Assembly: GCA_022841985.1 (NCBI GenBank)
Contig: JALHQL010000001.1
Location: forward strand, 71,529 to 126,437
Origin: Minisyncoccota bacterium
Lineage (GTDB): Bacteria; Patescibacteriota; Minisyncoccia; Phycocordibacterales; Phycocordibacteraceae
DNA: 54,909 nucleotides
Direction of reading: 5' to 3'
The translations under genes and the position numbers were made by a program. Shown piece after piece: positions 44,063 to 54,793 of the stretch (position 1 is its first letter; the number at the start of each line of letters is the position of its first letter). Below the pieces are notes generated by a model, which was not told the origin of the DNA, ran no database searches, and saw only the letters and a list, made by a program, of their open reading frames with translations.

Positions 44063-44130
44063 CAGGTACATTGAATAAACTGGCTTGATACCGTATCGTC
44101 TAGATAGTACGACACTCCTGTGTCGTACTA

Positions 44131-44277
44131 TTGCCAGATCGTCTAATGGTAAGCTCTGCTTTTGCTTCGCAGTAAGCAGAGCTTTCTACCATCGCTCGGT
44201 CGGAAGAATGATATAAGAATTTCATTCTTCACTCCCTCGCTCGGCAGTAGGACATTGTCCTCCCTTGCGACTGGCAA
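44131..44277 (+). pseudogene. tRNA-Gln-derived remnant with hairpin insertion
   Basis: Exact copy of the tRNA-Gln 5' end, then ~95 nt of hairpins, then AGGAC (D-stem 3' strand) and CTGGCAA closing the acceptor stem; no anticodon or T arm. Confidence 0.6.
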
Positions 44278-44296
44278 TAAGGTAGAGTACTACCAT

Positions 44297-44370
44297 TGCC
44301 AGATCGTCTAATGGTAGGACCTCAGACTCTGAATCTGAGTATCTTGGTTCGAATCCAAGTCTGGCAGCCA
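44297..44370 (+). tRNA. tRNA-Gln(CTG)
   Basis: TGCCAGA/TCTGGCA acceptor, TCAGA-CTCTGAA-TCTGA anticodon arm, GGTTCGAATCC, encoded CCA. Confidence 0.96.
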
Positions 44371-47456: not shown

Positions 47457-48740
47457 TTACTCCATCGTCACCTTTTTATCTTTCAGAAACAGTTTGCTTT
47501 GCAAGCACCCGAGCAGTTCTCGTTTTTCAATCAGTGTTCCTTCCTTCAGTAAGTACTTCGCGTAATTTCTCACGTCGACATCGATAGCGACTTTATCCTG
47601 TTTATGTCCCAATACTCCCGATCTAAATTTGTTGAATCGCTTTATCTCATCCTCGATCCTTGCTCGCACACCTAGTTCGTCTAAGTTCACTGTATCGATG
47701 AGTCCTATCAGTTCTTCGATCAAGCTCGGTTCGTTTACCGCAGGGTTCTTACAGTCTATGTTTCGCGCCTTTGTACAGAAGTAGTACACATGTCGGTTTA
47801 CACCACCATCTTTTAGTTTCTTGAATTTCTCGTCTGCTGATATGCCTGATCCGCAGTGTCCGCACCGTATCAGTTTTGTGAAGGCGAACTCCTTACTCTC
47901 AGTCTTTGGTATGTAATTTGCATTTAAAGTTAGCTGTACTTTTGTATATAGCTCCTTATCTATTATCGGTGTGTGCTTTCCCGTGTACCATTGACCACCT
48001 CCGACTGGATATTCAAAGTCTCCGTAGTAGAACGGATTTCGTAAGATTATGTAGATGTTTGCGAGCACGAGTGGCTTACCTCGATGTGTTTTGAAGTCTA
48101 TTTCTCTCAGCCATCGGTATACTTTTCGTCCACTCCATTGTTCATGCGCGACCTTCTCAAACATCTGTTTGATAATTGGTCCACGCTTTAGATCTATTCT
48201 GCACTGGCATTTCTTGTCGACATGTTTCTCATTTAAGTATCCCGTCGGTGCAACTCCTGGTCTCCATCCCATCTCACATCGGGTTCGTAATCCTCGCTTC
48301 ACATTCACTGCCTTGTTATCGTTCTCGAGTTTTGCCTGACTTCCAAGAATCATCAGAAGGAATTTCTCATTCGGATTGTTGGTGAACTTTTGACTATACG
48401 TTCGTATCTCATGCAGAAGCTTCTGATCCATCAGGTCTACCACCGATCCTAAGTCTCCAGCATTTCTGCTTAGTCTGTCCGGCGCCCATGTGAGAATCGC
48501 ATTGAATTTCTGCGAGCGTAGTTCCTCGAGCATTTTGTTGTATACAGGTCTCTGTCCAACCTCCTTTGAAGAGTGCGATTCACGTTTTATCTCGACCACG
48601 TGCAGATGCTCACGTTCAGCCAGCACCTGCATTTCCTTTACCTGTGACTCTATTGAAAGAGCCTGTTTGTCCTCAGCTTCGGTACTTTTGCGTGCGTAGA
48701 GGCAGTATCGTAAGGCCCCTTGTGGTTGCGTTTTTTTCAT
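47457..48740 (-). CDS. Large serine recombinase (resolvase + recombinase + Zn ribbon)
   Basis: YARKS catalytic Ser, DRLSRN, APTGY, HTPII, CGHCG...YYFC. Confidence 0.93.
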   Translation of the reverse strand: MKKTQPQGALRYCLYARKSTEAEDKQALSIESQVKEMQVLAEREHLHVVEIKRESHSSKEVGQRPVYNKMLEELRSQKFNAILTWAPDRLSRNAGDLGSVVDLMDQKLLHEIRTYSQKFTNNPNEKFLLMILGSQAKLENDNKAVNVKRGLRTRCEMGWRPGVAPTGYLNEKHVDKKCQCRIDLKRGPIIKQMFEKVAHEQWSGRKVYRWLREIDFKTHRGKPLVLANIYIILRNPFYYGDFEYPVGGGQWYTGKHTPIIDKELYTKVQLTLNANYIPKTESKEFAFTKLIRCGHCGSGISADEKFKKLKDGGVNRHVYYFCTKARNIDCKNPAVNEPSLIEELIGLIDTVNLDELGVRARIEDEIKRFNKFRSGVLGHKQDKVAIDVDVRNYAKYLLKEGTLIEKRELLGCLQSKLFLKDKKVTME

Positions 48741-48823
48741 ACACCACAAGGAATGACGCAATGGCTCCTAGGAGTCTAGGATGGGTAAGTTGATAACTTT
48801 TTAGCACGCATATGCTCAAGTTC

Positions 48824-48860: not shown

Positions 48861-49607
48861 ATGCAAAAAAACAATCAGGGGTATGAAGCTGTAGTGCAAC
48901 TTCTAAGAGATCATCCCGAATGGTTTCCTGTGGTGGCAGCTGCCCTAGAAGAAGCGCAGACCATTAAGAGCAACCGCTTTGCGGGTGCGTGGATTCTTGA
49001 GCGCGCGAAGAAGCATGGGGTCCAGTGGATTCCCAATTTTCGTAAGCTTGTTTCCTATGGAATTTTACAGAAGGACGGTGAGTCATCTCGCGGTGGCCGT
49101 CGCGCATATTATTCGATGCCTGATGTTGCAGGTGTGGAGAAAGCACTAAAGGAATTCGATTCCCCACAAGTTGCAGCACCGTACACCGCTCATGAAGTTA
49201 CGGATTCTGGCATTGCTAAAAGAAAAAATATCCTGGTACCATTTTATGCGAATCTCGCATCATGTGGTGGTCCGAATATTAGTGAGGGATATGTCGATGA
49301 TTATGTTGAAGTAAGTACGGAGTCTGCAAAACCCGGCTACCAGTATTATCTTGTTCGTGCGGACGGGGACTCAATGAATCAAGCGGGAATAAATAGTGGG
49401 GATCTCATTTTGGTGCGTGTTCAGGATTACGCCAACCTAGGCGATAGAGTTATTGCATGTACAGACGATGGTGTCACCATCAAGGAATTTCACCGACAAG
49501 GTAATTCTATCCTTTTGATGCCGCGTTCAGACAATTCCGCGCACAAACCTTTATTACTAGATAGCGTTCAAATACAAGGAGTCGTCGTTGCGACGGTGCC
49601 GAAATAA
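48861..49607 (+). CDS. LexA/UmuD-like S24 autopeptidase with N-terminal putative winged-helix domain
   Basis: ASCG cleavage site, ADGDSM (Ser), VTIKEF (Lys), IQGVV. Confidence 0.85.
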   Translation: MQKNNQGYEAVVQLLRDHPEWFPVVAAALEEAQTIKSNRFAGAWILERAKKHGVQWIPNFRKLVSYGILQKDGESSRGGRRAYYSMPDVAGVEKALKEFDSPQVAAPYTAHEVTDSGIAKRKNILVPFYANLASCGGPNISEGYVDDYVEVSTESAKPGYQYYLVRADGDSMNQAGINSGDLILVRVQDYANLGDRVIACTDDGVTIKEFHRQGNSILLMPRSDNSAHKPLLLDSVQIQGVVVATVPK

Positions 49608-49611
49608 ATAT

Positions 49612-49845
49612 ATGACAAAGAAAAATTTTCACAGTGTTCCTAAGGATAATAGATGGGCGGTCAAAAAAGAAGGAATAGTAAAACCTCTTTCTATGCATCG
49701 CACCCAAGCAACTGCAGAAGAAAAAACACGACTACTTGCGAAAAAGGCAGAAGTTGAAGCTGTGTACCACAACAAAAAGGGAGAAATCAAAGATAAGGAT
49801 AGTTTCGGTCACGATCCGAACCCACCCAAAGATCGGGTGCATTAA
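49612..49845 (+). CDS. DUF2188 family protein
   Basis: HSVP..RWAVKKEG...HRTQ..A....H...GEI..KDSFGHDPNPPKD. Confidence 0.85.
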   Translation: MTKKNFHSVPKDNRWAVKKEGIVKPLSMHRTQATAEEKTRLLAKKAEVEAVYHNKKGEIKDKDSFGHDPNPPKDRVH

Positions 49846-49864: not shown

Positions 49865-50317
49865 ATGAAACCAACCGTTTTTGTGAGTTTTGATTACGAC
49901 AACGATAAACACTATAAGTATCTGCTTGAAGCTTGGAACAATAATCCAAAATTTAAGTTTGTGTTCGATGATGGAACACCACAGGAGATAGATAGCAACA
50001 ATGTCGGTCGCATAAAAGCTGCACTTACGTCAAAGATAAAAGATGCGACACACACATTGGTTATTGTCGGCAAGAACGCCAATGATATGCATCGCAAGAG
50101 TTCATTAATCGGCTATCGTAACTGGATAAATTTTGAGGTGGCAAAGAGTGTTGAGTTAGGAAAACGTATTGCCGCTGTAAAGCTTGATCGTTCCTATACA
50201 TCTCCAGATGAACTTTCGGGCGCGAGTGCTTCATGGGCCTATTCATTTACTGAGGCGAATATAATAAAAGCACTGGAAGACGCACCGTACCCAGGACTCA
50301 TACGCCGCTATGTCTGA
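49865..50317 (+). CDS. ThsB-like TIR domain protein (DUF1863/MTH538-type)
   Basis: VFVSFDYDND, TLVIVGK, NWINFEV with catalytic-position Glu. Confidence 0.85.
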   Translation: MKPTVFVSFDYDNDKHYKYLLEAWNNNPKFKFVFDDGTPQEIDSNNVGRIKAALTSKIKDATHTLVIVGKNANDMHRKSSLIGYRNWINFEVAKSVELGKRIAAVKLDRSYTSPDELSGASASWAYSFTEANIIKALEDAPYPGLIRRYV

Positions 50318-50912
50318 TAAACCACTTTCAATTATCTACGATCACTACAAGGAGACTTGCACCATTATCAGCGAGGCAGTAAAGCGTCGCGATCGCTTGA
50401 TGGTTTTTGTGATAATAGCCCTTAGTTTTTTCGCTTTTCAGACAATTTTTCCTACCACTTCGGACACGGTAGTCAATGATTTCCTTAGTTTCAAATTTGG
50501 ACTAACTCTCAAGTTTGATCTTTCCATAATTGGTAATGTCGTGTGGTTTTTATTACTCATATTCACGCTCCGGTATTTTCAGGTCGCAGTCTTTGTTGAG
50601 AGACAGTATTCGTACTTACACGCGACCGAAGAAAAACTTAACAAGGAATTTGGGCAAGAACTGATCACGCGCGAAGGCAAGTCTTACTTACATAAATATC
50701 CCTTGTTCTCGGACTGGATGTGGATGCTTTACACGATTATATTTCCACTCATTTTGCTTGTTGTTAGTGTAGTAAAGATAGTGAGCGAGTTGAAGTATTT
50801 GTGTGTGAACGGATGGTCTTTTGGTCTACTTTTAGACGGCACGGCGTTCATCCTCCTGGCAATATCGATCGTTCTTTATTTAACAACACTTCACAGAAAA
50901 TCTAAAGACTAA
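50310..50912 (+). CDS. Four-TM membrane protein, putative defence effector
   Basis: Four hydrophobic helices; overlaps TIR1 stop by 8 nt and ends 6 nt before TIR2. Confidence 0.75.
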   Translation: MSDKPLSIIYDHYKETCTIISEAVKRRDRLMVFVIIALSFFAFQTIFPTTSDTVVNDFLSFKFGLTLKFDLSIIGNVVWFLLLIFTLRYFQVAVFVERQYSYLHATEEKLNKEFGQELITREGKSYLHKYPLFSDWMWMLYTIIFPLILLVVSVVKIVSELKYLCVNGWSFGLLLDGTAFILLAISIVLYLTTLHRKSKD

Positions 50913-50918
50913 AATACT

Positions 50919-51467
50919 ATGGCTTACAGAAACGGAACATATGTAGCATTCCATGCAAACAATACTTCTGATCCTTCAGAATCTGACATGAAGTATTACA
51001 ACACCCTCAGAATGTGGAAGGTGCGCGATGAAAGCGATTTTAAATTTATTAACAGTCACGAAAAACGTGATGTTCGTGATTCAAGCACAAAAGAAACCCT
51101 TCGGCGTGCCTTGAGGGAGAGGATGAATAATTCCAAACATCTTTTATTAATTATCGGCGATACTACGCGTTTCGATACGGACTGGATACCATTTGAGATC
51201 ATTCACGCGGTGGATAACTGTGATATTCCAATAATTGCTGCATACCCTGATTACGACAGGATCATGGATCCAAGTGCCTTATCTACTTTATGGCCAAAAG
51301 CATTAGCGGATCGCATAAATAACAAGACCGCACGAGTTATCCATGTTCCATTTAAGAAAGAACCAATTGCAGATGCTATCTCTCAATTTGATTTTGAGAG
51401 TCCTCCGAAGGGAAGCCTCTCTTACTATTCCAAGGAGGCATATATTAGTTGGGGGCATGTTTTTTGA
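50919..51467 (+). CDS. Second ThsB-like TIR domain protein (DUF1863-type)
   Basis: MAYRNGTYVAF, FINSHE, VRDSS, LRERMNNSKHLLLIIG, DWIPFEI with catalytic-position Glu. Confidence 0.85.
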   Translation: MAYRNGTYVAFHANNTSDPSESDMKYYNTLRMWKVRDESDFKFINSHEKRDVRDSSTKETLRRALRERMNNSKHLLLIIGDTTRFDTDWIPFEIIHAVDNCDIPIIAAYPDYDRIMDPSALSTLWPKALADRINNKTARVIHVPFKKEPIADAISQFDFESPPKGSLSYYSKEAYISWGHVF

Positions 51468-51560: not shown

Positions 51561-51740
51561 GTACAACTGAATATCTGGCCGGAAGGCCAGCGACCTAACC
51601 CCTCACGTTTTGCGTGAGGATATGGTCGGGAAAGCCCTTCGCAGACACTGAACCCCACGTTCAGCGACTCTGCGAAGGGTCATATCGGGAAACTGGTATG
51701 TGGCCGCAAGGCCTAGCTAGCGTGGGGTTTAGTGTTATAT
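51561..51740 (+). ncRNA. Candidate structured ncRNA or cis-regulatory leader
   Basis: Extended -10 TGcTATCAT just upstream; several stems with GGAA/GAAA/GCAA tetraloops; 15-bp long-range pairing. Confidence 0.55.
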
Positions 51741-51786: not shown

Positions 51787-52248
51787 ATGGAACAGCAAAT
51801 AGAGAAGTCGAAGAAAAAGCTTTATCAGCGTTGGTGGATGTGGGTCATTTATGCCATCGCATTCACTATTGTGATTGCCAACTTTAGCGGGTCGAGCAGT
51901 AGCTCCGCTCCTGCGTCAGCTCCACCACAAGAAGCGATCAAAGTGACCGCTCTTAAGATAGTCAATGACTACAAGGAAAACGGTGTCGCGGCAGATGCTA
52001 CCTACAAAGGCAAAATTATTGAAGTCACAGGTACCGTAAAGACAATAGACAAGGATATTCTCGATACGCCATATATCGCACTCGAGAGTTACGAGTATGC
52101 CATCGTCGATCACGTGCAGTGCATGTTCCCGAGGTCGAGCGCGGCGGAGTTAGCGACCGTGACAAAGGGGCAGAAGATAACACTCCGTGGAAAGGTGCTC
52201 ACCAATATGGGCAACATCCTTGTCGAGGATTGCTTAATCGTGAGATAG
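51787..52248 (+). CDS. Membrane-anchored OB-fold protein (tRNA_anti-like family)
   Basis: KKKLYQRWWMW TM anchor, Ser/Pro linker, DYKENGVAADATYKGKIIEVTG, KGQKITLRGK. Confidence 0.78.
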   Translation: MEQQIEKSKKKLYQRWWMWVIYAIAFTIVIANFSGSSSSSAPASAPPQEAIKVTALKIVNDYKENGVAADATYKGKIIEVTGTVKTIDKDILDTPYIALESYEYAIVDHVQCMFPRSSAAELATVTKGQKITLRGKVLTNMGNILVEDCLIVR

Positions 52249-52689
52249 TCACTTCTTTGTTTCTTTTCGAATAATGCCGTAATTCTTGAGTGCGTTCATA
52301 ATCGGTTCCACGATGTGTGGTGGTAATTTATTTCTATCAACGTGAGCCTTCAGTCGCTCATAGTCTCTACGTTCAATTTCCGTTAGTGGCTCGACGAATC
52401 TACTTCTCTTCGGCATATATCGTGGATCGTTGTGTGTCAGGAAAAATTGGATTGCTCGTAACTTTTCATTCTTTACACCTTTCATAAGTGCCGCCTCGGC
52501 AACCTCGATCCAACGCTCTCGACCATCTTTGAGTGCGCGATTAACACCCCGTCGGTAGTCGACGTTACTCTCCATCCAGCGGTAGTGCGTTGCCCGAGCT
52601 ATTCCTACACTTTTGCAGGCATGTTCTATGTTCGGATTGTCTGCAAGTAACCGGATGATTTTATTCCTTTCATCACTGGTTCGTGCCAT
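52249..52689 (-). CDS. HTH protein resembling phage small terminase N-terminal domain
   Basis: IEHACKSVGIARATHYRW HTH, AEAALMK...AIQFFL; coupled to ParB-MTase. Confidence 0.65.
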   Translation of the reverse strand: MARTSDERNKIIRLLADNPNIEHACKSVGIARATHYRWMESNVDYRRGVNRALKDGRERWIEVAEAALMKGVKNEKLRAIQFFLTHNDPRYMPKRSRFVEPLTEIERRDYERLKAHVDRNKLPPHIVEPIMNALKNYGIIRKETKK

Positions 52690-54007
52690 GGATCTTTACC
52701 CGCTTTTTTCCTGAGAACTTCTCCCAGCGGTTCAGAATCACCTCAGCGTAGATCGGTGACTTTTCCATAAGGAAGCAACGCCTTCCCAGTGCATTGGCAG
52801 CGATAAGCGTCGACCCGCTTCCACCAAATGGTTCAAGTACTAACTGACCCCTCCGCGTGAGCACTTTGATGTACGGAATGAGAATCGGGAGAGGCTTCAC
52901 GCCAAAGATAATACCTTGGCCGCTCGACTTCTCATCCGCTGCATTGTGATCGATGAAGTCAGTCGGGCAGTACGCTTTATCCTTCCCATAGGACTCCCAG
53001 TGGGGCTTCCCAGCTATGGCGAAGAGTGCAGTCTGGTATTCGTTCTCCAGCAGTTCGTCCTCAGGAGAGAGATCGAGTCCAGGATGCTCGGCACTGGTAC
53101 CGACCATTGCGATATCGTGTTTCGAGAAGAACTTGTGCTTCCCGGCATATCCTTGGTTCCGGTTCGGAAGATGCCACACGATCATGTTCCGCACCTTCCA
53201 GTGTTTTTCCATCTCGCTCCAGATCTCACGGATGTTCTTCCAGTTTTCGTAGCAGATAATCGAAAAATCTTTTGCAGCAACCTTTGCTACGTTGCCCATC
53301 CAGAGTTCGGTGAAATTCTCGGGGAGGGATTCGGTTTCGAGATAACGACGATTCTTCTTGGAGCCAAATCCTGTTGTCGACTCACCGTTACGTGTCTTGC
53401 CCTTAAGATAGTCGAGACGATACGGTGGATCGGTCATCACCATATCGATTCTGTGGTCCCCAACGAGGGCAAGCATATCTGCCTCAATCGTTGAGTCACC
53501 AATGTAGAGACGGGAACCGTCGAGATCATACAAGTCGCCTTTTTGAGCGGTGATCTCTTTGATATCAAGTTTGTCGAGCTCTTTTTCTAGATCGAATTGC
53601 TCTTCACTTTTCTCTGTCGCGAAAATGTCGTCGAGTTCCTCCGAATCGAAGCCGATATCCTTGAGGAAGGATTCGTCAAACTGTGCCAAGAGGTCGAGGT
53701 CAAACTGACCTTGGTTTTTATTGAGTCGGATGTTTAGCTCCTTTTCTCTCTCAAGTGGAAGATGGACACGAACAATGGGTACCCGTTCGACCTCCATTTC
53801 CTTAAGCATGGTGAGACGGAAATTGCCGCCAACTACGATGTTCATGCGCTCCTCGGTTGAGTTCACGATGAGTGGGTCAAGGACGCCAAACTTCGAGAGG
53901 CTCGTTTTGAGATCTCTCTTGTCCGACTCACTCCACACTCGCGGGTTATATTCGCACTCTTTTAATTCGTTGATCGAGATGTATTCGATCGTTAGGTCTT
54001 TGTTCAT
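52673..54007 (-). CDS. ParB-like N-terminal domain fused to N6/N4 DNA methyltransferase
   Basis: YNPR, VVGGNFRL, LNKNQG; TDPPY and EPFGGSGSTL motifs. Confidence 0.9.
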   Translation of the reverse strand: MNKDLTIEYISINELKECEYNPRVWSESDKRDLKTSLSKFGVLDPLIVNSTEERMNIVVGGNFRLTMLKEMEVERVPIVRVHLPLEREKELNIRLNKNQGQFDLDLLAQFDESFLKDIGFDSEELDDIFATEKSEEQFDLEKELDKLDIKEITAQKGDLYDLDGSRLYIGDSTIEADMLALVGDHRIDMVMTDPPYRLDYLKGKTRNGESTTGFGSKKNRRYLETESLPENFTELWMGNVAKVAAKDFSIICYENWKNIREIWSEMEKHWKVRNMIVWHLPNRNQGYAGKHKFFSKHDIAMVGTSAEHPGLDLSPEDELLENEYQTALFAIAGKPHWESYGKDKAYCPTDFIDHNAADEKSSGQGIIFGVKPLPILIPYIKVLTRRGQLVLEPFGGSGSTLIAANALGRRCFLMEKSPIYAEVILNRWEKFSGKKRVKIHGTNQ

Positions 54008-54717: not shown

Positions 54718-54793
54718 TAGCAAAATACCAAGGTTCGGCTCGTCCTATCCACGCCCCTTGGGGGCGTGGATAGGACGAGCCGGTGTTTTGCTA
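54718..54793. repeat. Long GC-rich inverted repeat
   Basis: Perfect 22-bp stem 54736-54757/54761-54782, flanked by TAGCAAAATACC/GGTGTTTTGCTA. Confidence 0.85.

Follow-up and report, generated by a model that had tools for sequence, protein, structure and literature searches.

A putative Thoeris-like TIR operon with a four-transmembrane protein on a prophage-like element of a bacterium with a small genome

Two TIR proteins, TIR1 and TIR2, and a small protein with four transmembrane (TM) segments, hereafter the TM protein, are encoded side by side in a three-gene operon located in a stretch of 54,909 nucleotides (nt) of contig JALHQL010000001.1 from a Minisyncoccota bacterium. This whole stretch is referred to as the window, and all coordinates given for it are positions within it. 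The operon is likely to represent a Thoeris-like anti-phage system that relies on TIR signaling and is carried as cargo of a prophage-like integrative element in a bacterium of the Candidate Phyla Radiation (CPR) type. This reading is based on the ThsB-type nature of both TIR proteins and the Glu residue they retain, on the linkage of the TIR and TM genes as seen from either side, their close spacing, the swapping of partners, the occurrence of several TIR genes around a single TM gene, the genomic context, and the patchy spread of the family.

According to the mechanism proposed for the system, one or both of the ThsB-type TIR proteins would detect the phage infection and, by means of their conserved Glu residue, would convert nicotinamide adenine dinucleotide (NAD+) into a signal derived from ADP-ribose (ADPR), for which a cyclic ADPR isomer can be proposed as a guess. 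The signal would bind to the cytoplasmic face of the 200-residue TM protein, made of its N-terminal helix and the loop that connects TM2 to TM3, where invariant Arg, Glu, Tyr and His residues occur. The TM protein, probably assembled as a homo-oligomer, would then breach or depolarize the membrane and the infection would be aborted. We infer the production and the chemistry of the signal, the binding of the ligand, the oligomerization, the damage to the membrane and the protection against phages from the Thoeris types that have been characterized.

The TIR proteins and their linkage to the TM gene

The Pfam family PF08937 (ThsB_TIR) groups TIR proteins that produce a signal. Both TIR proteins of the operon match this family above the Pfam cut-off of 21.2 bits, TIR1 with 45.2 bits (1.3e-11) and TIR2 with 60.1 bits (2.9e-16), and these are the only two PF08937 matches of the host genome. 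With respect to the PADLOC models, TIR1 corresponds to the ThsB1 model PDLC00429 (1.7e-12) and TIR2 to the ThsB1 model PDLC00421 (4.8e-66); TIR1 also matches the phage protein family phrog_6988 (2.2e-36). Most of the TIR2 chain can be aligned with the solved ThsB-like chains 3hyn, 8v6t and 9uv0 (E values from 9e-20 to 1.3e-15), the last of which was deposited as a 'putative cyclic ADP-D-ribose synthase ThsB', and TIR1, when compared alone to the PDB, gives a marginal match to 8v6t only. The two proteins share 25% identity over 88 residues, in an alignment that brings the WINFE motif of TIR1 in front of the WIPFE motif of TIR2. The Glu residue at the catalytic position corresponds to E91 in the NWINFE stretch of TIR1 and to E93 in the DWIPFE stretch of TIR2; N86, W87 and E91 are invariant in all of the 83 aligned TIR1-type proteins, as is E93 in all five TIR2-type proteins. 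The short TIR1 chain is devoid of any obvious separate sensor domain, and the Pfam scan of the operon, to which this search was confined, disclosed no SIR2 or SLOG protein. A preliminary description of the operon, made from the DNA letters, had recognized two dissimilar ThsB-type TIR proteins keeping their Glu residue, and the Pfam scores and the low identity bear this out. It had also described the middle protein as a four-TM protein of 200 residues, coupled to its neighbors by an overlap of 8 nt (TIR1/TM) and a gap of 6 nt (TM/TIR2), which agrees with both the list of open reading frames (ORFs) and the hydropathy profile, and the peptides it quoted from the soluble parts do occur in the translated TM protein. 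A PADLOC comparison, which it had suggested, associates both TIR proteins with ThsB models and the TM protein with noise only.

The association of the TIR and TM genes was surveyed from both sides, using a TM-side set of 79 genome loci and 13 loci on viral contigs of the IMG/VR collection (92 in total), and a TIR1-side set of 18 viral and 80 metagenome loci (98 in total). A TIR gene adjoins the TM gene in 88 loci of the first set, the opposite of the unlinked TM homologues that the preliminary description had named as telling against its proposal. The neighbor is of the ThsB type in 82 of the 92 loci, where it occurs upstream only (70 loci), downstream only (seven loci) or on both sides of the TM gene (four loci), the last locus (L067) containing an upstream TIR2-like gene hidden inside an over-called ORF. 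In six loci the neighbor belongs to another TIR family, either TIR_2 (L025, L070 and L073) or CAP12-PCTIR_TIR (L029, L034 and L033, the latter assigned by its near-identity to the two others). Seen from the TIR1 side, a TM gene follows directly downstream on the same strand in 84 of the 98 loci; six loci leave no room for it, and eight offer the room and contain no TM gene. Among the pairs with an upstream TIR gene, 71 out of 74 overlap or are separated by at most 30 nt, a measure that takes the start codon nearest to the TIR stop and favors small values. The pairwise identities of the TIR1 and TM proteins are correlated (r=0.69).

Genes of the TIR2 type are much more sparsely distributed, since they accompany the TIR1 and TM genes only in the window and in the loci L004, L008 and L039, and represent the sole TIR gene in L067. 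Several TIR genes surround a single TM gene in the window and in L004, L008, L039, L069 and L071. Owing to the linkage counts obtained from both sides and to the rarity of TIR2-type genes, the conserved unit consists of the TIR1-TM pair, and TIR2 is an accessory. The linkage between TIR1 and TM genes is near-obligate and reciprocal across many phyla. Dozens of unrelated genomes show the arrangement, which is therefore far from what chance would produce. In this respect, the distinct Thoeris-like type announced by the preliminary description stands as regards the coupling of TIR genes to a membrane protein gene, and has to be amended as regards the TIR-TM-TIR order, which is a minority form found in 4 of the 92 loci in addition to the window.

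Depending on the locus, the TM family pairs with three distinct TIR families, PF08937, PF13676 and PF10137. In turn, in three of the eight exceptions on the TIR1 side, more distant relatives of TIR1 are found beside other membrane proteins, namely a SLATT_1/DUF4231 protein in L131 and PF24838 (8xMP) proteins in L132 and L133 (1e-41 and 1e-39, respectively). TIR families and effectors are thus interchangeable around a shared partner. As a separate observation, a conserved protein of about 406 residues precedes a gene of the TIR1 clade (55-60% identity to TIR1) in two loci that contain no TM gene (L180:1689-2906 and L201:1769-2989); it gives no Pfam hit, and an HD-like 'HRDHY.H' motif can be discerned in it by eye.

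The neighborhood of the genes was surveyed by taking one non-TIR ORF of at least 150 residues on each side, 120 out of 128 being kept after trimming. The S24 repressors form the commonest class among these 120 nearest neighbors, with 9 occurrences, and the other neighbors include serine recombinases (5), further TIR_2 proteins (5), DNA methylases, ResIII proteins, HsdR restriction subunits, Eco57I-type enzymes, AbiU2, WYL proteins and terminases. According to the titles of the records, the TM family is present in Patescibacteria, Bacillota, Bacteroidota, Chloroflexota, Pseudomonadota, Acidobacteriota, Cyanobacteria, Planctomycetota, Verrucomicrobiota, Omnitrophota, Poribacteria and others. Among 401 genomes sampled evenly across the host phylum, 4, including the host, contain the family and 17 contain ThsB_TIR proteins; in roughly one out of four searched genomes that bear a TIR protein, the TIR partner is therefore the TM gene. 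Such a patchy spread fits a defense cargo that is moved horizontally.

The TM protein family and its remote relatives

The TM protein contains four hydrophobic segments, located at about residues 30-48, 69-95, 140-158 and 173-191. The Lys and Arg residues cluster at both ends of the chain and in the TM2-TM3 loop, and this distribution suggests a topology with both termini inside the cell and a cytoplasmic TM2-TM3 loop. The protein has no match in Pfam (E<=0.1), NCBIfam or PHROG, and only a noise match in PADLOC (0.013). The SLOG, SIR2, Macro and caspase domains, which the preliminary description could not discern in it, do not appear in the Pfam scan either. A word-indexed search with the TM protein retrieved 165 clusters at 90% identity, and no Pfam domain occurs among the 120 matches listed of these 165. 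An exhaustive HMMER search extended the family to 620 representatives at 50% identity (E<=1e-3), including 478 at E<=1e-10. When 62 diverse members were scanned singly against Pfam at E<=1, no consistent family emerged among the 25 most frequent of the 80 families matched (a maximum of 5 members out of 62, best E value 0.011), and no PADLOC model was shared by more than 2 of the 62 members. Searches of the PDB with the TM-family profile and with the 8xMP profile revealed no sequence relative.

Three groups of conserved columns are readily distinguished in the family. The N-terminal helix, of the DHYK..RRD type, contains H12, Y13 and R27, the end of TM2 contains W79, R88, Y89 and Q91, and the cytoplasmic loop contains E97, R98, Y100, Y102, H104, E107, R121, E122, G123, K124 and Y126. 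The TM2-TM3 loop is accordingly recognized by the motif RYFQ..ERQYxYxHxxE..TREGKSY..YP. Judging from this conservation, the N-terminal helix and the TM2-TM3 loop likely form the predicted signal-sensing face of the protein.

The TM family is essentially a stand-alone family, as only one longer or fused form (P0351, of 397 residues, from one metagenome contig) was found among 2714 candidates. The extra C-terminal extension of P0351, of about 190 residues, gives no Pfam hit, and a phosphoribosyltransferase-like 'LLVEG..TGKT' stretch can be seen in it by eye. Some loci associate the family with proteins other than TIR proteins. In the Chloroflexia members devoid of a TIR gene, DUF7701 (PF24792) is either encoded directly upstream of the TM gene (L041:5666-5971) or fused to the C-terminus of the TM-family protein (P0243), which suggests that the TM protein may have DUF7701 as another partner. 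In Mucilaginibacter (L047:2000-5971), the TM gene follows a gene for a nSTAND1 NTPase of 1324 residues, with no TIR gene.

A remote kinship of the TM family with the Pfam family 8xMP (PF24838) was considered, since 8xMP was the nearest named cluster in the ESM Atlas, with a feature score of 0.79 that serves as a lead only; the cluster is automatically named 'RipA family octameric membrane protein'. The 8xMP proteins presumably form octamers, an assumption taken from the name of the family alone. The TM protein of the window does not match PF24838 at the gathering threshold of 30 bits, and the best member of its family, from Lutibacter (L045, the same gene as L214), remains below this cut-off with 21.4 bits (E 2.4e-4), its residues 10-155 being aligned to positions 3-133 of the 136 of the model. 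The comparison of 418 TM-family sequences with 13 8xMP sequences by hhalign yields a probability of 75.6% in the local mode (P 2.4e-5, 111 columns) and 82.7% in the global mode (P 1.1e-6), as compared to 0.1-0.3% for the reversed 8xMP alignment and 0.0% for five column shuffles; the smaller alignments A2 and A6 give only 18.7%, which counts against the kinship. The 8xMP hidden Markov model, run on the same 418 sequences, recovers 9 of them at E<=0.01 and 52 at E<=1, as compared to 0 and 5 for shuffled sequences. Four out of the seven conserved 8xMP columns pair with conserved columns of the TM family displaying the same residue, R27, W79, E107 and E122. Both families share a N-terminal YK...RR helix, a Trp residue in TM2, and a H..E / E motif in the next loop, and they differ by the shorter chain of the 8xMP proteins (about 140-220 residues), which are devoid of the fourth TM helix of the window family. 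The 8xMP genes also adjoin TIR genes, in L132, L133, L219, L221 and L224, and weakly in L220. Taken together, these similarities make it somewhat more probable that the two families are related at the superfamily level than that they are not. The TM family would probably resemble 8xMP in its core and possess a fourth helix in addition, and is not a member of PF24838 as judged from its sequences. No published work was found on the function of 8xMP or on 8xMP/RipA in defense. Beside another 8xMP gene, a protein composed of a Nuc_deoxyrib_tr (TIR-like) domain and a prokaryotic STING domain is encoded on the - strand (L222:409-1467).

A bolder reading would unite the TM family and 8xMP in a single large superfamily of oligomeric pores gated by a TIR signal, with a binding pocket confined to the N-terminal helix and one cytoplasmic loop and made of R27, R88, R98, Y100, Y102, H104, E107, R121, E122 and Y126. 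This reading is tentative and rather doubtful. If true, no smaller receptor of an immune signal derived from ADPR would be known. Under this reading, the existence of a dedicated TIR clade (TIR1, phrog_6988) means that the signal may lie outside the known cyclic ADPR isomers.

Surroundings of the operon

The genes for the S24 repressor, the DUF2188 protein, TIR1, the TM protein and TIR2 form a single string on the + strand (Table 1). On its 3' side, the DUF2188 gene is separated from TIR1 by 19 nt, and on its 5' side it shares 20 nt with the S24 repressor gene. It was overlooked in the preliminary description, in which the TIR-TM-TIR content of the operon is otherwise correct. Its upstream position is kept in L002, L004-L007, L009 and L015, and it is possibly a further, putative component of the operon.

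Table 1. Features of the operon and its surroundings, numbered within the window.
Feature	Position	Strand	Description
Large serine recombinase	47457-48761	-	Resolvase, Recombinase and Zn_ribbon_recom domains; divergent from the cassette
S24 LexA/CI-like repressor	48861-49607	+	PF00717 at 8.9e-22; phrog_4 transcriptional repressor
DUF2188 gene	49588-49845	+	85 residues; PF09954 at 6e-14; PADLOC candidate PDC-S16 at 2.3e-23
TIR1	49865-50317	+	150 residues; single-domain ThsB-type TIR; dedicated partner of the TM gene
TM protein	50310-50912	+	200 residues; four TM segments; predicted effector
TIR2	50919-51467	+	182 residues; ThsB-type TIR; predicted accessory second sensor
LOOT RNA motif (Rfam RF03000)	51592-51714	+	80 bits (gathering score 46.4); model positions 1-121 of 121
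tRNA_anti-like OB-fold membrane protein	51787-52248	+	PHROG superinfection exclusion Sie-like, phrog_8545, 7.5e-23
Small-terminase-like helix-turn-helix (HTH) gene, then ParB-N + N6/N4 DNA methylase fusion	52249-54007	-	Pfam/PHROG matches

The serine recombinase marks one edge of the element and confirms the recombinase island of the preliminary description. The GC content falls from about 0.50 to 0.41-0.45 over 46-52 kb of the window. The window ends with the contig (C1), the far edge of the element being outside view, and a repeat scan of the window up to this end revealed no att repeat for the element. Downstream of TIR2, a gap of 320 nt before the Sie-like gene houses the LOOT RNA motif, and the Sie-like gene itself is likely a second exclusion gene on the same element. 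Scans for promoters and terminators remained at chance level (8 found, 7.6 expected). Two repeats were recorded in addition, a 22-nt inverted repeat without mismatches, the arms of which enclose a loop of 3 nt (54736-54782), located 130 nt from the contig end, and a 26-nt direct repeat, 96% identical (44126-44151 and 44291-44316), the second copy of which overlaps the 5' half of a tRNA-Gln gene (44297-44370). A past integration event may have left the direct repeat behind as a fragment of a tRNA.

In the related CPR loci L004 and L008, the same cassette is accompanied by the methylase, HTH and S24 genes known from the window, with ordinary host genes alongside. Since the cassette and these element genes occur together in L004, L008 and the window, the system appears to travel as cargo on related integrative elements of the prophage-like type. 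All three frames of the operon are intact and share 55-87% identity with those of close relatives. The closest homologues come from metagenome-assembled genomes (MAGs) of Saccharibacteria, Uhrbacteria and Parcubacteria. The host genome consists of 670,906 bp distributed over 12 contigs and is 98% complete. In a listing of sequencing runs, it is represented in no RNA run, and by small shares only in 5 DNA runs from 2 studies. Owing to this 0.67-Mb genome and to the closest homologues found in CPR MAGs, the host fits a CPR-like bacterium, as the preliminary description had proposed.

Alternative readings and relation to known Thoeris types

Several points weigh against the Thoeris-like reading. 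The steps that go beyond the anatomy of the genes are inferred by analogy. The TM protein has no recognized ligand-binding domain and exposes only short stretches to the cytoplasm (about 30 + 40 residues), so that the binding of a ligand by this protein is an assumption. The loci surveyed cannot be treated as phylogenetically independent, and the two sets have some viral contigs in common, the linkage counts being descriptive and given with no statistics. Four of the 92 TM loci show no TIR neighbor, namely L041 with DUF7701, L047 with the nSTAND1 NTPase, the orphan L051, and L054, which is not assessable at 207 nt from a contig edge; the TIR-less loci mean that the TM protein can work with other partners. 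The TM protein found no match in the collections of cultured phages and plasmids that were searched by single-sequence tblastn. Finally, the product of the TIR protein failed to set off effector toxicity in type IX and in one of the type V systems, according to the preprint of Yirmiya et al. (bioRxiv 10.64898/2025.12.03.692087), and a simple signal-to-effector logic is therefore not guaranteed even in verified systems.

The same source mentions TIR domains as NADase effectors in several defense systems (10.64898/2025.12.03.692087). The roles of the two partners could be reversed in this sense, the TM protein acting as a sensor, e.g., of a membrane perturbed by the entry of phage DNA or late in infection, or as a mere anchor, and the TIR proteins depleting NAD+ as effectors, as they do in CBASS, Pycsar and TIR-Argonaute systems. 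A TIR1 chain of only 150 residues with no obvious separate sensor domain would suit such a role, as would the presence of the TM family beside CAP12/Pycsar-type TIR proteins (L029 and L034), a family known as effectors. However, this reversal is unlikely, as TIR1 and TIR2 both belong to the signal-producing family PF08937, the whole length of TIR2 can be aligned to solved ThsB chains, relatives of the TIR1 clade pair with the effector-type partners SLATT and 8xMP, and the presence of at least two divergent TIR proteins per TM gene is better explained by many sensors converging on one effector than by one sensor commanding many effectors. The very tight coupling of the genes, the co-variation of TIR1 and TM identities (r=0.69) and the almost exclusive partnership of TIR1 with the TM family could also speak for a direct gating, the alternative offered in the preliminary description, in which the TIR proteins would bind the TM protein on its cytoplasmic side and cause its opening or assembly, no diffusible signal being involved. 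This is hardly probable, since the TM family works with three TIR families, the Glu residue invariant in 83 of 83 proteins argues for an enzymatic activity, and co-variation is expected from plain co-inheritance too.

Small proteins with several TM segments encoded by prophages frequently act as holins or in exclusion. This background, together with the location of the cassette on a mobile element beside a repressor and the vicinity of a Sie-like gene, leaves some room for a module devoid of immune function, i.e., an element-maintenance or lysis-timing module of the addiction or holin type, with a TM toxin held in check by the TIR proteins, or else a decaying cargo. It is a very improbable explanation in view of the three intact frames with 55-87% identity in close relatives, the invariant catalytic residue of the TIR proteins, and the occurrence of the pair far from prophage genes as well, beside restriction-modification and Abi genes. 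The Thoeris-like signaling system is thus retained as the likely reading of the operon.

If confirmed, this reading would add to TIR immune signaling an abundant effector family, of 620 clusters at 50% identity distributed, by the titles of the records, over more than a dozen phyla, which is missed by current defense finders because no Pfam or PADLOC model exists for it. It would indicate that a cytoplasmic surface of about 70 residues on a four-helix membrane protein could read a nucleotide signal, and would tie 8xMP, a Pfam family without explanation, to immunity. It would also mean that CPR bacteria with genomes of 0.67 Mb acquire predicted abortive-infection systems on prophage-like elements. 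The value of these results is tempered, as the general principle was already set by the preprint of December 2025 (10.64898/2025.12.03.692087).

In this preprint (10.64898/2025.12.03.692087), 29 putative Thoeris types are annotated and types V to XI are verified; the effectors listed are of about 30 kinds, further TM effectors among them. Type V associates ThsB with ThsF, a three-TM protein of the DUF2270/PF10028 family, and uses 3'cADPR as a signal; type VII associates ThsB with ThsH, a SLATT protein, and uses cyclic ADP-ribose (cADPR); the effector of type X is an ion channel. In type II, the effector, ThsA renamed ThsC, combines two TM helices with a Macro domain, is activated by His-ADPR and is said to form a cell-killing pore. 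The same text cites DUF2188 as a putative effector of Thoeris systems, describes islands with several ThsB genes, which the loci with several TIR genes around one TM gene recall, and uses interchangeable partners or TIR proteins, a pattern also seen here, for calling new Thoeris types. No other paper among those searched mentions 'ThsJ', 'type IX Thoeris', 'DUF2270', 'ThsF' or 'DUF6650'. The bare membrane effector that the preliminary description had held to be non-canonical is accordingly of an established kind, types V, VII and X being already verified in the preprint.

Taken in the broad sense and judged from its sequences, the operon probably counts as a Thoeris system. Its TIR proteins are of the ThsB type and keep the Glu residue of the catalytic position, as attested by the PF08937 cut-off that is passed, the invariance of the Glu and the match of TIR2 to solved ThsB chains, and they have a conserved operonic partner predicted to be able to act as an effector. 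Like type I, it possesses a protein, TIR2, that is close to PADLOC ThsB1 (PDLC00421) and to solved ThsB chains, and unlike type I, it is devoid of a SIR2-SLOG ThsA; the PADLOC ThsA models match neither the TM protein nor any of the 62 members scanned. As compared to type II, no Macro domain occurs in the TM protein (Pfam, E<=0.1) or among the listed families, i.e., the 25 of 80 mentioned above, for the 62 members. The same limits apply to type V, with no PF10028 match for the window protein or among the families listed for the 62 members, and to type VII, with no SLATT match in either; PADLOC RTasSLATT matched a single member out of 62 at E 0.05, which is noise. DUF2270 sequences were sought for comparison and none was found in 3 genomes, nor in 105 genomes from the family to which the L016 genome belongs. 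ThsJ, the type IX protein of B. cereus VD021, which the text of the preprint does not describe, appears on weak evidence to differ from the TM family, the sole B. cereus-group cluster of which bears no VD021 label. The TM family may already be among the types listed in the preprint (10.64898/2025.12.03.692087).

With types V, VII and X, the operon shares a two-gene core made of a ThsB-type TIR protein and a small multi-TM protein without any SLOG or Macro sensor, optional extra TIR proteins, a defense-island or mobile context, and a predicted route from a TIR signal to membrane damage. It differs from types V and VII by its four TM helices, instead of three or two, and by being known from its genes alone. 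Compared with the described types on the basis of their descriptions, the TM family is a new effector family of an already familiar kind, and not a new category.

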